A stretch of DNA of 64,000 nt from an uncultured Bacillota bacterium (GTDB taxonomy: Bacteria > Bacillota_I > Bacilli_A > RFN20 > CAG-288): contig CASDOO010000035.1 in the NCBI GenBank assembly GCA_949282275.1, positions 13,625 through 77,624 of the forward strand, written 5' to 3'. The position numbers were made by a program, and so were the translations under genes. Numbering within the stretch: position 1 is the first letter of the stretch; each line of letters starts with the position of its first letter. Shown piece by piece: positions 3,161 through 10,903 of this stretch. A model generated the notes under the pieces. That model was not told where the DNA came from and made no database searches. It saw only the letters and a program-made list of their open reading frames with translations.

Positions 3161-4068
3161 AGATGGAATCCCATGGAGGAGAGGACAAGATAGAGGATGA
3201 CGATGGCGATGGGCTGGTGAAGGAGATAGACCCAGATGGTATGGCCGCCAAGGAAGAGAAGCGGCTTGAAGACGGGCTTTCCAAGGAAGGGGACACGGCT
3301 CTCCTTCCTTTCGCCATAGACGCCCTTTCCGAAGGCCATGCCGATGAAGATGACGCCAAGATAGGGGAAGATTGGCCACCAGTCGACGGTGTTTCCGTAA
3401 TAGCCAAGGGCAGAAAGGACAAAGCCGAAGGGATCTTTCTTCTGCCAGTCGACGATCGTGCCGCGGAGATATTCCACAGGCCATGCCTCGCCGATGAAGC
3501 CGGCTCTCAGAAGCAGGCCGAAGATATAGACAAGGATACCAACGCCAAGGCAGAAGAGAGGCGAGACTTCCTTATGTAGGACTTTCCTCGAGAAAAGCTC
3601 GATCAGGGCATAGAGAAGGACGGAAAAGCCCATGATATGGAGGATGCCCCAGCCGATGAAGAGATTTATCTTGAGATAATAGGAAAGAAGGAAGGAACCC
3701 AGGGAAAGAAGGATGGCCCAGAGACAGAGAACCAAGGCTCTCTTGAGATTGTTCCTCGAAAGGGCCGTCGAGACACCGCAGGCAAAAAGGAACATGCCGG
3801 CAAAGAGCGGAACAAGCCATGTCGAGATGATGTCGCTCGAGAGGATGCCTTGGCAGTATTCGACAAGATATTTCAGGTTGGGGTATTCGTCGATGAACAT
3901 ATCGTAGTTGGCAATGAGGGAAGGAAGCTCGGCCATGTCGAAGCAGAGATGGTAGAGGACGACAAGGAAGATAGGAAGGGCACGGAGCAGGTCGACTTCA
4001 TAGATTCTCGTCCTCTTCTTCGGAATGTCGATGAAGACATTCTCAGTATATGCGGGCACAGTTTTCAT
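3157..4068 (-). CDS. Multi-pass membrane acyltransferase-like protein (DUF1624 / heparan-alpha-glucosaminide N-acetyltransferase-like)
   Basis: 303 aa with about eight hydrophobic segments and an N-terminal 'LLRALPIFLVVLYHLCFD' motif typical of this family. Its stop overlaps the ligase start (ATGA at 3157-3160). Confidence 0.7.
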   Translation of the reverse strand: MKTVPAYTENVFIDIPKKRTRIYEVDLLRALPIFLVVLYHLCFDMAELPSLIANYDMFIDEYPNLKYLVEYCQGILSSDIISTWLVPLFAGMFLFACGVSTALSRNNLKRALVLCLWAILLSLGSFLLSYYLKINLFIGWGILHIMGFSVLLYALIELFSRKVLHKEVSPLFCLGVGILVYIFGLLLRAGFIGEAWPVEYLRGTIVDWQKKDPFGFVLSALGYYGNTVDWWPIFPYLGVIFIGMAFGKGVYGERKESRVPFLGKPVFKPLLFLGGHTIWVYLLHQPIAIVILYLVLSSMGFHL

Positions 4069-4074
4069 GCGGAC

Positions 4075-4103
4075 ATTATACTACGTAGGAAAAGGCATGC
4101 CGA
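4075..4103 (-). promoter_or_regulatory. Candidate sigma-A promoter giving a leaderless transcript for the acyltransferase-ligase pair
   Basis: On the minus strand a perfect TATAAT (4080-4075) ends 6 nt before the ATG at 4068. The -35-like TCGGCA sits 17 nt upstream. There is no Shine-Dalgarno between them. Confidence 0.35.
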
Positions 4104-4324
4104 AGGGGAAATGAGGAATGGGAAGGGACAATAGAAAGACACCTATTGGGGTTTCTTGAATTTAAGATGTCAACGAATGACTTCATATGTCGGATGTCCT
4201 TGACAAGTGGCAAGCGGGGGGAAAAGATACCTGTAAATTATCGAAAAACCTTTTCATAAGTAAATAAGCTATTTTTCGTATTTGTACTTTGTGATGCCAG
4301 AATTTGTTTTTAAAAGTAATGAAT

Positions 4325-4439
4325 CCAACGACAAAATCCATCGGCTCCAAAGAGATTCGGCTTACACGTAGGGGCAGGAAAAATCTTCCCATGAAAGGGG
4401 ATGGAAAGCCTGATGGCTTGTCGTTGGGTTTGTTTTTTT
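4325..4439 (+). ncRNA. Candidate structured RNA element of unknown class, with nested helices ending in a U-tract
   Basis: Perfect 10-bp long-range helix ccaacgacaa (4325-4334) / ttgtcgttgg (4418-4427). It encloses a second helix ccatcggct (4338-4346) / agcc-t-gatgg (4407-4416) and small internal hairpins. It is followed by gtttgttttttt (4428-4439). Confidence 0.25.
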
Positions 4440-4577
4440 CGTCCTTTCTACCAAATAAGTAGTGAAGCATGGCAACGTGCTTCTGAAGGGACTCGGCGCC
4501 GGTTCTGCCTCTTTTCATTTCTTGCTTTGTTTCCGTCTTCCGCCGACAGGGACACTGTCGGAGAAAGGAGGTGAGTC

Positions 4578-4676
4578 ATGGGAATATTCGATGTTCTCGG
4601 ACTTCTTTTTCTTTATCTCATCCTCAAGCTCTTCGACAAAAAGGGAAAAAAGAAAAAGAACCGTGATGATCACTGA
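4578..4676 (+). CDS. Small hydrophobic peptide with a Lys-rich tail (type I toxin-like), 32 aa
   Basis: Below the ORF-track cutoff. Hand translation of atg gga ata ttc ... cac tga gives MGIFDVLGLLFLYLILKLFDKKGKKKKNRDDH. Near-perfect RBS aaaggagg with a 6-nt spacer. A 7-bp hairpin (4543-4561) abuts the RBS. Confidence 0.45.
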   Translation: MGIFDVLGLLFLYLILKLFDKKGKKKKNRDDH

Positions 4677-4722
4677 CTGGCCAGTTAGCTGATCATGAGG
4701 CAGAGCCTCCGCCGGTTCCTTT
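4641..4722 (-). ncRNA. Candidate antisense sRNA (type I antitoxin-like) overlapping the 3' end of the small peptide ORF
   Basis: Deduced from the minus-strand promoter at 4729-4757. A 12-bp hairpin (4667-4695) is followed on the minus strand by tcacgg then ttctttttcttttttcccttttt. The 6-nt gap before the U-run weakens the terminator call. Confidence 0.3.
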
Positions 4723-4728
4723 AATGAA

Positions 4729-4757
4729 ATTATAGGGAGAGGGGACAAGGATTTCAA
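4729..4757 (-). promoter_or_regulatory. Near-consensus sigma-A promoter on the minus strand, facing the small peptide ORF
   Basis: Minus-strand reading is TTGAAA, then a 17-nt spacer (tccttgtcccctctccc), then TATAAT. No protein-coding ORF with an RBS lies downstream of it. Confidence 0.5.
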
Positions 4758-5135
4758 GGTTCACAAGTGTACAGGCTTGCCTCTTTGAATGGTCAATAAA
4801 GTACTAAGAACAAAGGCTTTATGGATATTCTTTCGTATCTTTTTCCCAACATATCCATACAGGAGAGCCTCGATGGTCTTAGACACGTTTTATATCGTTG
4901 GCAATCATGCCAAAGAGTCTCGAGGTTTCTTTCTTCTTGTATGGGAAAAGGACAAGAATGAGACCTGGAAAAGGCTCTGTTGCCCTTTTGTGGCAGGAAA
5001 GTTTCCTTTCTTCTGCCGTGGGAGACAAAAAGAGGCAGAAAATATGAAGGCAACTTATCGCATAGCTATCTCGTCAATAAAGTTGGTTCTTGAAAAAGAG
5101 ATTGCTCTCTCATGTAAATCATCGGGCTTTTAATG

Positions 5136-5164
5136 TTGTAAAGGTCATTTGGCCGAACTATAAT
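5136..5164 (+). promoter_or_regulatory. Sigma-A promoter of the three-gene SMC-like operon
   Basis: TTGTAA (5136-5141), a 17-nt spacer, then TATAAT (5159-5164). The predicted TSS is about 5170-5172. Confidence 0.55.
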
Positions 5165-5168
5165 TTTA

Positions 5169-6668
5169 TTGAACTTATGTGGAAAGGCGGTAAACGTTTT
5201 GGCAAGACTCTTTGATAGGATTCCAGGGGATCTCTTCTCCCCGCTGTCGCGAAAATACAAGGCGATATACGCATTTGCCCTCGTCTGCCTCTATCGTTGT
5301 CTTCGTTTGTACAAAACGGATATCAAGAGAAGCGACTATGTTTCCCTGCTGAAGAGCCAGGGACAGGAGCTTCTCGATCTCTTTTCGGTCGAGATGGACC
5401 AACTGGATGACAAGAGCGATGAGGAAAAGGTCGCTCCCGACAAGAATGCCGAGGATGATTTCTCTTCGAAGATTTCCTATGTCGTCCGCAAGCTTTCCAC
5501 CTGCGGATGGTTCATCCTGAGCAAGAATCCCAAGAACGGCGTCGAATATATCTATATTCCGGCCTATTCCATCCAGCTTCTCAAGCTTATCAATGACCTG
5601 ACGACGGATGTCGGCACCTATCTCCCTCTTGTCCACCAGACCTATGCCGAGCTGAAGATGGAAGACGACAAGGAAGACGACTACATGTATCGCTCCCTGC
5701 TCAACGCAAGAAGCAATGCCGACTCCATCGAGATGTCCGTCACCTTGCTCAAGCAGCAGATCTGCGTCTTCGGAAACCGCCTGACTTCCGTCCTCGACCC
5801 CAACATCGCCCTCAAGCAGCATTTCGACGAATATCGTACATCGATTTCGGACAAGTACTATCATCCGATGAAGACGTTCGACTCCCTGGGCCTCTATTCC
5901 CAGCCGACGATCGCCATCCTCAACCGCTGGCTCAAGAGCGAACGCATCATCACCCTCATGGTAAGGGAAGCCAAGGGCGAGCCGGTCAACCGCAACAGGG
6001 ACGAATCGAGCATTGCCAAGGACATCATCAAGACCATCAACGAGATCATCGACATCTTCTCCAGGCTGACGGCATCCTTCAACGACATCGACAGGGCCAA
6101 TGCCAACTATACCGAGGCGGTCCAGAAGAAGGTCAACTATCTCTCCGCCACCGACAAGACCATCAAGGGCAAGATCGACAGGATCATCCTTGCCATGGCA
6201 AGCGAGATCAAGAACAATCCCGCCCTCCGCTATGAGGAGCTTCCTATCTGCGAGAAGGCCAGGAACACCCTCAATCTCATCCGCCAGGGCTATCTCGACA
6301 GCCGTTCCCTGACGATGCCCTTCAAGAGGGGGACGATCGAGGAAGGCGAACCGCTTCCGATGGACGACGATTTCTATCCCGACGAGCAGTTCGGACTCTT
6401 CAGCCAGAGACTGGACGAGGAGCTCAACCGTTTCTCCGATTCGGCCATCCTCGAATTCATCGATGCCCTGATGGCAGGCAAGGACGAGATGACGACCTAT
6501 GACATTCCGATAGCCGATGCCGACCAGCTGGTCCTGATGATCCTCGCCATCCTCAAGTGCAAGCTCAACCTCATCCCCTATACGGCCGAGAAAATCGAGG
6601 ACAGGGTCGACTATGCCGGATACTATATGCCCCTATACAAGTTCACCAGGAAGAAGAGAGCGAGGTAG
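5169..6668 (+). CDS. JetA/MksF-like (kleisin-position) protein, first gene of the SMC-like operon
   Basis: Maximal ORF of 499 aa starts at TTG 5169. Because the predicted TSS is about 5171, the in-frame TTG at 5199, preceded by ggaaaggcgg, is the more likely start (489 aa). The sequence is helical with no enzymatic motif visible by eye. The function call rests on size and position upstream of JetB/JetC-like genes. Confidence 0.6.
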   Translation: MNLCGKAVNVLARLFDRIPGDLFSPLSRKYKAIYAFALVCLYRCLRLYKTDIKRSDYVSLLKSQGQELLDLFSVEMDQLDDKSDEEKVAPDKNAEDDFSSKISYVVRKLSTCGWFILSKNPKNGVEYIYIPAYSIQLLKLINDLTTDVGTYLPLVHQTYAELKMEDDKEDDYMYRSLLNARSNADSIEMSVTLLKQQICVFGNRLTSVLDPNIALKQHFDEYRTSISDKYYHPMKTFDSLGLYSQPTIAILNRWLKSERIITLMVREAKGEPVNRNRDESSIAKDIIKTINEIIDIFSRLTASFNDIDRANANYTEAVQKKVNYLSATDKTIKGKIDRIILAMASEIKNNPALRYEELPICEKARNTLNLIRQGYLDSRSLTMPFKRGTIEEGEPLPMDDDFYPDEQFGLFSQRLDEELNRFSDSAILEFIDALMAGKDEMTTYDIPIADADQLVLMILAILKCKLNLIPYTAEKIEDRVDYAGYYMPLYKFTRKKRAR

Positions 6669-6673
6669 ACAAC

Positions 6674-7396
6674 ATGTTCACAGAAGATTATGAAAAACTG
6701 ACGCGCGGCGAGAGGACACTCTTCTCGGAAGCCCTCAACGATCTCCTCTACCAGTGCTTCATCGTCCGCAAGAGCTACGACAGGAAGAGCCGCATGTTCA
6801 AGGCCGATCCCGACTATCTCTTCATCGAGAGGCACTATTCCATGTTCGAGGACTATCTCTCCTACATGGACATGGACCTGAACAAGTCGGACGAGGACGG
6901 CATCATCTACATCACCTCCGGCGCGGAGAAGAACCACCTCCGCATCGATACCGTCACGACCCTCATCGTCTATGCCCTGCGCTCCTACTATGAGGACCAG
7001 ATCGGAAAGGCCCCGGAGGAGACGGAAGTCCTGATGACCTATGGAAGCCTCAACAGCCTCCTTCAGGAGACCGGCCTTTCCAACCTCACCAAGAGGCTTT
7101 CCTCCTCGACGATCGCCTCTTCCCTGCGTACCTTGGATTCCTACAACGTCATCACCAGGGCAAACGGCACCTATGGCGAGCCTTCCTATAGCTTCTTCAT
7201 CCTTCCGACCATCAAGTTCGTCATCTCCGCCGAGAAGATGAATGCCCTCTATGGCTTCTTGACGAAGCCCGAGGAACCGACGATGGATGGCCAGCTTTCC
7301 AACGCCTTCGATGCCGCCGTTTCCAAGCCCGAGGAAAAGGCAAGCGAGGAAACGCCGCTGAGGACGGGCGTCGACATTCCCGTCAAGGAGGACTAA
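6674..7396 (+). CDS. JetB/MksE-like small subunit (240 aa) with an acidic C-terminal tail
   Basis: ATG 6674 (MFTEDYEKL...) is preceded by gagg with a 6-nt spacer, 5 nt after the upstream stop. Size, winged-helix-like segment ('IASSLRTLDSYNVITRANG') and acidic tail fit MukE/MksE/JetB-type proteins. The longer track ORF from 6557 overlaps gene 1. Confidence 0.6.
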   Translation: MFTEDYEKLTRGERTLFSEALNDLLYQCFIVRKSYDRKSRMFKADPDYLFIERHYSMFEDYLSYMDMDLNKSDEDGIIYITSGAEKNHLRIDTVTTLIVYALRSYYEDQIGKAPEETEVLMTYGSLNSLLQETGLSNLTKRLSSSTIASSLRTLDSYNVITRANGTYGEPSYSFFILPTIKFVISAEKMNALYGFLTKPEEPTMDGQLSNAFDAAVSKPEEKASEETPLRTGVDIPVKED

Positions 7397-7399
7397 GAC

Positions 7400-10300
7400 A
7401 TGAAGAACCTCGTCAAGCTCCGTCTCATCAACTGGCACTACTTCTCCAACACGACGACGGATATCAAGAACATCACCTTCCTCACCGGCCCCAACGGTAC
7501 CGGAAAGTCCACCATCATCGATGCCATGCAGATCCTCATCCTGGGATCGACCCGTCCGGACAACTTCAACAAGGCCGCCAACGAAAAGGGCCGTTCCGGA
7601 AGAAGCCTTCTTTCCTATCTCCGTGGACAGACCGGCGTCAGCGACAACGGCAACGTCATCAACCTTCGTCCCGGAAACTTCACCTCCTACATCGCCATGG
7701 AGATCTTCGACGACCAGGAAGACAGGACCTTTACCCTTGGTGTCGTCTTCGACGTCGATAGCGCCGACAACGTCGACAAGCACTACTTCTACCTGGATTC
7801 CCACTTCCCGGAGAACGGTTTCTCCAACTCCGATACCGAGAGCAATCCCAAGAAGGTCCGTCCCTTGATGTACCGGGAGCTTTCCGCCTATGTCCGCCAG
7901 AACTACAAGGTCAACCACTTCCGCTTCTTCGATACCGACACGGACTACCAGACCTTCACCAAGGAGGCCTTCGGAAACCTCCCCGACAAGTACTTCTCCC
8001 TCTTCAAGAAGGCCGTCTCCTTCGCCCCGATCAGCGATATCTCTTCCTTCATCACGGAATATATCTGCGACGTCGACAAGACCGTCGACATCGAGCCGAT
8101 GAAGAAGAACATCGAGCAGTACAAGATCCTCGAGCTCGAGGCCAAGAACCTCAAGACCAAGGTCGAGTGCCTGACCAAGATCAAGGACACCTTCGATTCC
8201 GTCCGCTCCTACAACAAGCGTCTGGACATGCTCACCTACGTCAATTCCCGTGTCCTCTACGAGGAGGGAAGAAGGAAACTCCAGGGACTCCAGGAAATGC
8301 TCGAGAAGGACAACCACAGGCTGATTGCCATCTCCGACCAGCTTGCCATCTACGATTCCCAGATCGAGGAGCTGAGGAAGGACATGTCCTCCTACCAGGC
8401 CAAGAAGCTCCAGTCCTCCAGCTACTCCCTGACCGAGAAGCTCTCGATGAAGAAGGACAACATCACCAAGCAGATCGCCAGCATCGAGATGCAGGTCTCC
8501 TCCGTCATGACGAAATTGACCCATTATGTCAACGACTATCTGGACGTCTGCCAGAACTTCGTCACCTTCTATTCCCAGTTCGATACCAAGCGTCTTGGCG
8601 GGAAGGTCGCCGCTTCCTTCGACGAGCTCCTTGAGCTTCTGAGGGATATCGTCGGCGAATGCCGCTCGCTTATCGATGCCATCGACACGGACCAGGTCGA
8701 CTTCTCCGCCGTCAAGGCCTTCCGCAACGACATGGAGCATCTCAAGAACCTGGCCATCCAGACGCGCTCCCTCCTCAACGAGGAACTCTACAAGATCGCT
8801 TCCGACCTCCAGTCCCTCCAGAGGGACCTCAGCGAGGTCAATTCCGGACAGAAGCCCTTCTCCCAGCTTGGCCCCAACTACCTCGCCATCAAGAATGCCT
8901 TGGAGACGGCCCTCAAGAGCCGGCATTCGGATAGCTATGTCCATATCTATTGCGACTTGGTCGACGTCAACGATTCCGAATGGACGATGGCCCTGGAAGC
9001 CGTCCTCTTCAACCAGAAGTTCAACTTCTTCGTCAATCCCAAGTACTACGAGGAGGCAAACCGCATCCTCAAGGAACTGGTCGCCAACTACAACTATTAC
9101 CGCGTCTCCCTGGTCGACACGGAAAGGCTTCTTGCCTCCAACATCGTCGCAAACGACGATTCCATCGCACATTTGATCGACACGAAGGACGAGGGCGCCA
9201 GGGTCTATACCGACTACCTCTTGGGACGCATCCGCAAGTGCCAGACCTTCGAAGAGGCCAGGCGTTCCGGATCGGGCCTTCTTTCCGACTGCACCGGCTA
9301 CCGCGGCTTTGCCACCTGGTATCTGAACAAGGCCAATGCCAGGGTCTTCTTCCTTGGGACCCAGGTCTCAAGCGACACCAAGGCCCTCTCCGCAAAGGAC
9401 TACCAGGAGATGAACAGGCGCCATTCCCTCTTTGCCGAGGCCCTCAACAAGATCCAGACCCTATTGACCCTTCCGGTCATGTCCGAGGCGGAACTGCAGA
9501 CCTATCAGGCCGACATCGACAGGACGAGCGAGATCGCCGGACTGCAGCAGAGCCTGAACAACGTCGACAGCGAGATGCACGATGCCTCTATGGGCGACAT
9601 GAACGAGGTCCAGAAGAAGATCGACGCCATCCAGGCCGACATCGACACGCTCAACAGGGAAAGGGAGGACCTCCTTACCGAGAGAGGCTCCCTCATCAAC
9701 GAGACCAGCCGTCTCAATGGCGAGGAAATCCCCATCGCCACCAAGAACATGGAGGACTTCAAGAGGGAGCTCTCCCACTTCGACGAGAAGGTCGTCAACG
9801 AGGAATACGAGCCCTTCTTCAACAAGCTCCTCGACGAGCAGAAGATGACCCTTCCCCAGATCCGCACCGAGGCCAGCAAGGAATACCTCCAGGCCTCCAA
9901 CAAGCAGCGCTACGACAGGGAGAACCTCCTGCGCCTGCGCTCCGACTATTGCGCCGCCTACCACCTCAACTACGACACCACTTCCCTGACGAGCAACGAC
10001 GAGTTCGAAAAGGAACTGGAGAACATCTCCAAGGTCATGCTGCCGGAGTACGAGGAGAAGATCCGCCAGGCCCACGAAGCCTCCATCCGCGAATTCAAGG
10101 ACGACTTCGTCTACAAGCTGAGGACCTCCATCGAGACGGTCCATGCCCAGATCGACGAGCTCAACCAGGCCCTTGCCGACAGCCATTTCGGAAGGGATAC
10201 CTACCAGTTCAAGATCACGCCCAACAAGGACTACATCGAATACTACGACATGATCATGGATCCGCTCCTTCTCAAGGCGGGCGATGCCGAGCAGCTCTTC

Positions 10301-10903
10301 ATGGAGAAGTACAAGACCACCATGGATGACCTCTTCACCCTCATCTCCTCCTCCACTTCCGCCAAGGCCGAGGAAAGGGAGCAGGTCTTCCAGAACGTGA
10401 AGATCTTCACCTCCTACACGACCTACATCCTCTTCGACCTCCTTGTCATCCGCGGCGAGGGCGAGAACGCCCAGACGATCTCCCTTGGCCGTTCCTTCAA
10501 GAGCCAGTCCGGCGGCGAGACACAGACGCCTTTCTACATCGCCATCCTCGCCTCCTTTGCCTCCCTCTGCCGTGCCAACAACCCCAAGGACAACAACACG
10601 CTCCGTCTTGTCATTTTCGACGAGGCCTTCTCCAAGATGGACTCCGCCCGTATCCGCCGTTCCACCGACCTATTGAGGCAGTTTGGCCTCCAGGCGATCC
10701 TCTCCACGCCAAGCGAGAAGCTCAGGGACCTTGTCAGCTATGTCGATTTGATCCTCGTTGCCATCCACGACGACAGGAGGAAGCGCTCCGGCCTGGACGT
10801 CTACCAGGACAAGAAGAAGGCCAGGCAGGAAAACGACAAGGAAGACACGCCTCCGGAAGGGACGCCTTCTCCCTCCGGAGAGGAAATGCCAGCCGTCCAG
10901 TAA
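7400..10903 (+). CDS. SMC-like ATPase of the MukB/MksB/JetC type (1167 aa)
   Basis: N-terminus 'LRLINWHYFSNTT..ITFLTGPNGTGKSTIIDAMQILILG' (Walker A). Long heptad-rich middle with a globular hinge-like segment around residues 520-640. C-terminal 'QSGGETQ' signature and Walker B 'LRLVIFDEAFSKMD'. It starts 3 nt after gene 2. Confidence 0.9.
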   Translation: MKNLVKLRLINWHYFSNTTTDIKNITFLTGPNGTGKSTIIDAMQILILGSTRPDNFNKAANEKGRSGRSLLSYLRGQTGVSDNGNVINLRPGNFTSYIAMEIFDDQEDRTFTLGVVFDVDSADNVDKHYFYLDSHFPENGFSNSDTESNPKKVRPLMYRELSAYVRQNYKVNHFRFFDTDTDYQTFTKEAFGNLPDKYFSLFKKAVSFAPISDISSFITEYICDVDKTVDIEPMKKNIEQYKILELEAKNLKTKVECLTKIKDTFDSVRSYNKRLDMLTYVNSRVLYEEGRRKLQGLQEMLEKDNHRLIAISDQLAIYDSQIEELRKDMSSYQAKKLQSSSYSLTEKLSMKKDNITKQIASIEMQVSSVMTKLTHYVNDYLDVCQNFVTFYSQFDTKRLGGKVAASFDELLELLRDIVGECRSLIDAIDTDQVDFSAVKAFRNDMEHLKNLAIQTRSLLNEELYKIASDLQSLQRDLSEVNSGQKPFSQLGPNYLAIKNALETALKSRHSDSYVHIYCDLVDVNDSEWTMALEAVLFNQKFNFFVNPKYYEEANRILKELVANYNYYRVSLVDTERLLASNIVANDDSIAHLIDTKDEGARVYTDYLLGRIRKCQTFEEARRSGSGLLSDCTGYRGFATWYLNKANARVFFLGTQVSSDTKALSAKDYQEMNRRHSLFAEALNKIQTLLTLPVMSEAELQTYQADIDRTSEIAGLQQSLNNVDSEMHDASMGDMNEVQKKIDAIQADIDTLNREREDLLTERGSLINETSRLNGEEIPIATKNMEDFKRELSHFDEKVVNEEYEPFFNKLLDEQKMTLPQIRTEASKEYLQASNKQRYDRENLLRLRSDYCAAYHLNYDTTSLTSNDEFEKELENISKVMLPEYEEKIRQAHEASIREFKDDFVYKLRTSIETVHAQIDELNQALADSHFGRDTYQFKITPNKDYIEYYDMIMDPLLLKAGDAEQLFMEKYKTTMDDLFTLISSSTSAKAEEREQVFQNVKIFTSYTTYILFDLLVIRGEGENAQTISLGRSFKSQSGGETQTPFYIAILASFASLCRANNPKDNNTLRLVIFDEAFSKMDSARIRRSTDLLRQFGLQAILSTPSEKLRDLVSYVDLILVAIHDDRRKRSGLDVYQDKKKARQENDKEDTPPEGTPSPSGEEMPAVQ

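Follow-up and report, generated by a model that had tools for sequence, protein, structure and literature searches.

What occupies the "empty" 1.1-kb intergenic region upstream of a Wadjet-like operon in an uncultured gut bacterium? The region is part of a stretch of 64,000 nucleotides, hereafter the window, for which the initial annotation had described a short unannotated ORF faced by a promoter on the opposite strand and had read this arrangement as a type I toxin-antitoxin-like module. Modules of this type are routinely overlooked by gene callers. The elements that it had listed, comprising the ORF, its Shine-Dalgarno (SD) sequence, a 7-bp hairpin, the antisense promoter, a 12-bp hairpin, a U-run, the complementary motifs tctgcctc and gaggcaga, and both copies of a 9-mer, were all found where they had been placed. 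In the following, we compare the locus with its homologs and discuss what the peptide and the opposing RNA may do.

A repeated cassette in an intergenic region

As judged from its homologs, a stretch of ~330 bp within this region (window ~4430-4757) represents one of several copies of a cassette with two genes, one for a 32-residue membrane-type peptide and an opposing one for an antisense sRNA. Homology between the copies extends from ~4430/4453 to 4757, that is, from promoter to promoter. The source genome, a 1.5-Mb draft with a GC content of ~55%, harbors three full copies (the window copy on contig C35, the others on C19 and C20) and a partial one on C27. Ten further copies, seven of them full, are present in three sister species: three in G002, three full copies (two close and one diverged, G005:C2) plus a partial one in G005, and one in G054 together with a decayed sRNA fragment. 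In addition, two metagenome contigs carry copies. The DNA identity of 13 further copies amounts to 74-85%, and one more, the diverged G005:C2, was recovered through the RNA and peptide profiles. The comparative analysis shows which parts are conserved: the ORF start, the SD sequence, the hairpins and the antisense -35 and -10 elements are kept in every copy, and the promoter spacer and the hairpin loops vary freely. This shared conservation indicates that the features seen in the window do not result from chance, and we consider it very probable that the peptide gene and the two RNAs are real functional elements.

The cassette was detected in 4 of the 45 species of its genus, which is composed of uncultured gut Firmicutes. 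The RNA model gave no match in the other six genera of the family, and the peptide profile, applied to a 401-genome sample of the order, returned one marginal match outside the genus (G083). A HMM search of 1.84 billion protein representatives yielded two clusters, both containing cassette-family peptides. Three matches from a metagenome pattern scan, which are without cassette homology, as well as a single gammaproteobacterial match in a genome scan were taken as chance, and a covariance-model match in G011 (30 bits) was rejected, as it lies in AT-rich, apparently coding DNA and has a broken P2 helix (see below).

The copies reside beside Bmp/fba, MntP/MFS, GH3/upp, a P-type ATPase gene and, in the window, between an acyltransferase gene and a JetABC-like operon, which encodes JetA (PF18982), a DUF4194/MksE-like protein and an SMC-type ATPase directly downstream (5169-10903). 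A functional tie of the cassette to this Wadjet-like operon was rejected, since each copy has different neighbours. Two loci, those of fba and of the P-type ATPase gene, are common to different species. In the closest relative, G005 (97% identity in JetA), all that is left of the cassette at the window locus is a decayed remnant of its 5′ part (66% identity over 154 columns; score 57, as compared with a shuffled maximum of 31). The remnant, positions 1051-1182 of L081 (G005:C1:183200-184800) aligned with window 4388-4538, comprises the promoter and 5′-UTR only; the SD sequence is destroyed, the ORF and the sRNA gene are gone, and the rest of the intergenic region is unrelated. Taken together, the orthologous fba and ATPase loci and the remnant in G005 argue for vertical descent.

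Several further features of the region were noted. The ~400 bp between the cassette and JetA (4760-5168) contain no Pfam-matching ORF; a 114-aa frame at 4789-5133 is without match, and the start of JetA is immediately preceded by a TTGTAA-17-TATAAT motif (5136-5164). The cassette itself directly follows a structured element (4325-4439) that has a U-tract and includes a terminator-like site at 4406-4431; the T-run of this element supplies the putative -35 element of the cassette. The 3′ part of this element (4388-4422) is ~86% conserved in G005, where the cassette has decayed, which marks the element as a separate feature. In G021, the acyltransferase/JetA intergenic region spans only ~350 bp.

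The peptide gene and its predicted mRNA

The ORF on the plus strand (4578-4676) consists of 32 codons and a stop codon and encodes the putative toxin MGIFDVLGLLFLYLILKLFDKKGKKKKNRDDH. Residues 2-19 constitute a hydrophobic helix that is followed by a charged tail. The mean Kyte-Doolittle value of this core is +2.15 in the window peptide, the tail of which has a mean of -3.5, and 1.3-2.2 across the copies. The tail is strongly polar, and its net charge ranges from -3 to +5. Thus, the hydrophobic helix that had been described initially is borne out, whereas the accompanying "Lys-rich" tail, given the varying charge, is a property of the window copy only. A hydrophobic, membrane-type peptide of less than 60 aa with its own ribosome-binding site is a feature of the type I class.

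The frame is open in 9 of the 11 full copies, with a length of 31-37 codons and the consensus M-G/D-x-x-D-V-L-x-L-L-x-x-Y-L-I-L-K/R preceding the charged tail. Pairwise dN/dS values range from 0.15 to 0.87 and are below 0.6 in all pairs but one, at a synonymous divergence (pS) of 0.25-0.78 between copies. Judging from these substitution patterns, the peptide ORF is under purifying selection, and the peptide is conserved as an ORF in homologous loci, as the initial reading implied. The SD sequence AGGAGGT (4566-4572, plus strand) is positioned 5 nt before the ATG, and all ten close full copies share the motif GAAAGGAGGT without change. Moreover, the five peptides aligned first all have K25-K26, the codons of which template the U-run of the antisense RNA.

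No family for the peptide is contained in Pfam, NCBIfam or PHROGs; Pfam at E<=10 returned nothing beyond sub-threshold matches to YtiC and BhlA. Likewise, the peptide matched neither Fst_toxin nor, in sequence, any other known family of type I toxins. Two longer frames, one of 80 aa on the minus strand and one of 76 aa on the plus strand, were rejected as genes, as their extent is not conserved across copies; moreover, the former starts at the antisense -35 element and is thus not expressible from that promoter. In the predicted mRNA fold, 4599-4612 pairs with 4639-4659, that is, A-rich Lys codons with U-rich core codons (CUUCUUUUUCUUU), so that the two halves of the ORF are partly self-complementary.

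Upstream of the ORF, the plus strand contains a putative weak promoter, composed of TTGTTT (4430-4435) and AATAAG (4454-4459) with an 18-nt spacer. All 11 full copies that were scanned show a match of 7-9 of 12 positions in this place, with 5-8 nt separating it from a hairpin downstream, and 4430-4459 presumably represents the sense promoter of the peptide gene. The hairpin in question (GAAGCAUG/CGUGCUUC, 4464-4483) would form the 5′-terminus of the mRNA and occurs in the MFE structures of all copies that were folded; in the MAFFT alignment three of its six outer pairs are changed on both sides, and 95% of the cells are paired.

The initial annotation had pointed to tctgcctc and gaggcaga as a possible pairing between the 5′- and 3′-ends of the mRNA. 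This pairing is real and covaries, but the 8 bp proposed were too short: folding and duplex prediction delineate 24 bp between a 5′ arm at 4485-4511 and a 3′ arm in the 3′-UTR at 4697-4722, which form three helices of 8, 5 and 11 bp in the MFE structures of all copies examined. The duplex has an energy of -44 kcal/mol in the window and of -37 to -48 kcal/mol in the copies (z -4.8 to -7.3), values that none of 300 shuffles reached. Over the 24 pairs, 90-96% of the cells are paired and four pairs are changed on both sides. When all mRNA helices are taken together, 94% of the cells are paired and nine pairs show two-sided changes, as compared with 0-1 of 500 shuffles and with 34-55% pairing in slid controls; these counts were made on a plain MAFFT alignment, unfitted to structure. 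In the diverged copy G005:C2, the middle helix is swapped for a different pair of complementary sequences.

The sequence of the 5′ arm nearly repeats, in the same sense, that of the 5′ half of the sRNA; the arm pairs with the 3′-end of the mRNA and not with the sRNA. Correspondingly, the sRNA covariance model matches the 5′ arm of the C19 copy on the mRNA strand. The bases of the 3′ arm are the same that are complementary to the 5′ half of the sRNA, and thus the 5′-end of the mRNA and the sRNA compete for the same bases in the 3′-UTR. Between the sRNA and the 5′-UTR, inspection by eye allowed only a 10-bp match.

Directly 5′ of the SD sequence, the 7-bp hairpin CCGACAG/CTGTCGG (4543-4561) is located, in which an A-U pair is replaced by G-C in four copies. 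The mRNA fold has a z-score of -6.7. In the three copies modelled, the probability of the SD sequence being unpaired was 0.02-0.2, irrespective of whether the sRNA target was blocked or free. A clear intrinsic terminator for the mRNA was not found; the 3′ arm is followed only by CCUUUAAU.

The antisense promoter and the sRNA

The promoter on the minus strand, TTGAAA-17-TATAAT (4757-4729), matches 11 of 12 consensus positions and is the top promoter-like site between 3900 and 5400. The assertion of a near-consensus antisense promoter directed into the 3′-end of the ORF was corroborated by comparative analysis, which shows a sigma-70-type promoter (9-11 of 12 positions, spacer 16-18 nt) in 14 of 14 copies, even in orphans that are devoid of the peptide gene. 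The spacer sequences are unrelated between copies, a signature of a functional promoter. In the 14 copies, the -10 element ends 8-11 nt before the conserved GRACC of helix P1, which places the start ~7 nt downstream, at the first bases of P1. The predicted 5′-end of the sRNA therefore reads AAAGGAACCGG.

The sRNA, the putative antitoxin, would extend on the minus strand from 4722 to 4646-4653, with a length of ~70-77 nt. It comprises the closing helix P1 (AAAGGAACCG with CGGUUCUUUU, then more U; 4722-4713 with 4663-4654), the hairpin P2 (GAGGC-UCU-GCCUC, 4709-4697), the variable hairpin P3 (4696-4666), which in the window copy is a bulged helix of 12 bp, and the U-run (4657-4646), the complement of the Lys codons. 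P2 is sequence-invariant: including its loop, it is identical in 12 of the 13 aligned copies, and the 13th is without one base. An antisense RNA of about 80 nt with the 12-bp hairpin placed before the U-run had been anticipated; the RNA, the hairpin and the U-run stand, but it is P1 that abuts the U-run, and the RNA is slightly shorter. At the level of this comparison, an antisense RNA gene with its own promoter and terminator, a further feature of the type I class, is present.

All 13 close copies fold into one three-way junction, and the diverged G005:C2 aligns to that structure. The window sRNA has a folding energy of -26.4 kcal/mol (z -3.2). In the model-fitted alignment, 95% of the cells are paired and seven pairs (21 cells) are changed on both sides, a level of covariation matched by none of 500 shuffles; slid controls pair at 40-58%. 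The covariance-model scores are 54-101 bits for the 13 copies and 30 bits for G005:C2. Comparative analysis thus shows a conserved structure for this RNA as it does for the mRNA, in line with the initial proposal to fold both transcripts. Moreover, many pairs in P1 are G-U, corresponding to A-C mismatches on the other strand, which indicates that the structure favours the minus strand.

The sRNA covers the last ~8 codons and the 3′-UTR of the mRNA and is fully complementary to them. Rfam contained no match, fstAT included, either over the whole window at gathering thresholds or over 4000-5300 at E<=10, and there was no sequence similarity to any known type I antitoxin family. By these searches, the sequence family is previously uncatalogued; the kind of system is already known. 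In two sRNA-only orphans, G000:C27:13088-13187 (L019 1489-1601) and G005:C6:217030-217120 (L024), the promoter, the three-way junction and the U-run are intact, and the former is located ~330 bp from an IS110-family transposase ORF.

Function and relation to known systems

ORF conservation, the conserved promoter and the structured antisense RNA support the initial type I toxin-antitoxin-like reading, and we consider it probable that the locus is a chromosomal type I module in which the peptide and the sRNA act as toxin and antitoxin. We infer transcription, toxicity and the mode of repression as follows. The weak sense promoter would give rise to an mRNA of ~260 nt (roughly 4464-4723) that opens with the protective 5′ hairpin and is closed by the 24-bp pairing of 4485-4511 with 4697-4722, and in which the strong SD sequence is predicted to be largely base-paired. 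The 32-residue peptide would damage the membrane when made in excess. The near-consensus convergent promoter would drive synthesis of the ~70-nt sRNA (4722 to ~4650), which is predicted to adopt the three-way junction and to be terminated by the closing stem P1 together with the U-run templated by the Lys codons of the peptide. Present in excess, the sRNA would pair with the 3′ region of the mRNA, resulting in cleavage by RNase III and decay, possibly in refolding, and no peptide would be made. This repression is modelled on RatA and SR4; RNase III is encoded in the source genome.

The copies also differ in what they have lost. Four copies in which the ORF is lost or frameshifted (G000_C19, G005_C1b, G000_C27 and G005_C6) keep a high-scoring sRNA gene and its promoter, and none of the nine intact ORFs is without the sRNA. 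The frameshifted copies G000_C19 and G005_C1b represent one orthologous locus beside fba. Loss of the ORF first and retention of the sRNA is consistent with the pattern predicted for a toxin and its antidote, as far as these few and non-independent copies indicate.

The same anatomy would result if the peptide were a non-toxic small membrane protein, for instance one that modulates a transporter or the envelope, and were tuned by a cis-antisense RNA, with neither toxin nor antidote involved. Several copies are indeed located beside transporter genes (MntP and MFS, the P-type ATPase, the Bmp-type binding protein), and the weak sub-threshold matches of the peptide are only to small membrane proteins. 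We nevertheless regard this explanation as unlikely: neighbours that change from locus to locus are ill-suited to a dedicated partner, the cassette is multi-copy with fast turnover, and sRNA-only orphans are under structural selection, whereas no peptide-only copy exists. Moreover, the combination of a weak promoter, a closed mRNA, a paired SD sequence and a strong antisense promoter is a hallmark of toxic products.

The conservation of the ORF, the SD sequence and the start codon, together with dN/dS values below 1, also speaks against the notion that the sRNA is the functional unit, acting in trans on targets elsewhere, and that the peptide ORF is secondary or decaying. The orphan sRNA copies with intact promoter, structure and terminator would fit this notion, as would the near-invariant P2, which, including its loop, suggests a sequence-specific contact. 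However, the invariance of P2 is explained by its complement, the pairing arm of the mRNA itself, and the orphans, which hardly differ in sequence from the sRNAs of full copies within their own genome, can therefore act on the mRNAs of those copies. A purely trans-acting sRNA is thus very improbable.

Finally, we give hardly any credence to a non-autonomous MITE-like mobile repeat with incidental ORF and promoters and with the 9-bp repeat as target-site duplication: although the unit is multi-copy, ~300 bp in length and contains inverted repeats (4485-4511, 4697-4722) and a 9-bp direct repeat, these repeats are internal to the conserved unit and not terminal, the 9-mer is imperfect in other copies, the orthologous loci between species and the G005 remnant indicate vertical descent, and the ORF is under coding-type selection. 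The 9-mer cgccggttc (4497-4505, 4710-4718), which had been thought to flank the cassette, is located inside it, is matched at 6-8 of 9 positions in other copies and is a by-product of the pairing arms; its interpretation as a target-site duplication was therefore rejected.

The probable toxin-antitoxin module can be placed alongside known systems. [quoted passage not shown] Likewise, the sRNA (4722 to ~4650) converges on the peptide gene and overlaps its 3′ part, the ORF ending at 4676. The likeness to txpA/RatA and bsrG/SR4 of Bacillus subtilis that had been drawn initially is apt as architecture, that is, as a convergent, 3′-overlapping antisense RNA (PMC4147584; PMC8594479). In these two systems, as well as in bsrE/SR5 and yonT/SR6, a small hydrophobic peptide gene is likewise opposed by such an RNA, which reaches into the end of the ORF and has a strong promoter of its own. 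Repression is expected to proceed through decay that depends on RNase III and, in the case of SR4, through refolding that is induced around the SD sequence (PMC4147584, PMC3834814, PMC8594479). However, no sequence, Rfam or Pfam relationship connects the cassette with txpA/RatA or bsrG/SR4, and its peptide comprises 32 aa as compared with the 59 aa of TxpA (PMC4147584). Further differences from the txpA/RatA group concern the overlap, which at ~70 nt takes in the entire sRNA, the mRNA, whose ends pair with each other and whose 5′ arm repeats the 5′ half of the sRNA, and the location of the copies, which lie between housekeeping genes and not in prophage or skin elements.

In peptide design, the cassette resembles par of pAD1 (Fst, RNA I-RNA II) and SprA1/SprA1as, the peptides of which, ~33 aa in length, likewise combine a hydrophobic helix with a charged tail (PMC4147584). 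It shares with them converging RNAs with a common structured terminator region, a repeat present in both RNAs and a structured mRNA 5′-end (PMC4147584). In par, the direct repeats engage the translation initiation region, and the ORF lies outside the overlap. Here, the last codons are overlapped by the sRNA, and the repeat makes the 5′-UTR of the mRNA resemble the sRNA instead of providing it with a target. As neither an Fst_toxin or fstAT match nor direct-repeat pairing with the translation initiation region was found, the cassette does not belong to the par type.

Closure of the toxin mRNA by pairing of its 5′- and 3′-ends is reminiscent of the Gram-negative systems hok/Sok and aapA1/IsoA1, in which end pairing keeps the primary transcript inert (PMC6733600, PMC9841398). 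In these systems, 3′ processing comes first, and the antitoxin then binds to the 5′ region or to the start of the ORF, whereas the sRNA described here would target the 3′ segment that is occupied by the 5′-end; in addition, the host is of the Gram-positive type and the sequences are unrelated.

Within the same order, two further modules, one in G053 with a 36-aa peptide (L073; G053:C4, ~72262-72336) and one in G083 with a 27-aa peptide (L074; G083:C3, ~3639-3695), display a 5′ hairpin, a 9-13-bp complementarity between 5′- and 3′-ends, GGAGG and a hydrophobic/charged peptide, the G053 module also a convergent TTGAAA promoter. Both are beyond the reach of the DNA search and the RNA model, and with marginal peptide-profile scores of 21-23 bits the likeness is one of architecture alone. 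Together with the cassette, they may form a wider superfamily in the order.

The near identity of the 5′ arm with the sRNA raises a more tentative possibility, which we consider somewhat doubtful, namely that the mRNA carries a mimic of its own antitoxin. The 5′ arm, as a diverged copy of the 5′ half of the sRNA, would hold the target of the sRNA in the 3′-UTR, so that end-to-end closure and antitoxin binding would be mutually exclusive. The mRNA would then operate as a three-state switch, being closed and inert, sRNA-bound and degraded, or opened and translatable. The invariant Lys-Lys codons would be fixed partly as the template of the U-run in the antitoxin terminator.

The cassette adds an unannotated family, from uncultured gut Firmicutes with small genomes, in which both RNA structures are backed by compensatory changes. 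Its copies provide a natural decay series, from intact to ORF-broken, sRNA-only and loss of both, that is consistent with the logic of an antidote. Moreover, the cassette joins two features that are usually apart, a 3′-overlapping antisense RNA and a 5′-3′ closed mRNA, the 5′ arm of which copies the antitoxin. If the mimic exists, one module would combine the long-distance lock of Gram-negative systems with the 3′-overlapping antisense RNA of Gram-positive ones. If confirmed, this architecture would offer a compact model of an mRNA fold and an antisense RNA competing for one site, and would be a useful small regulatory part.
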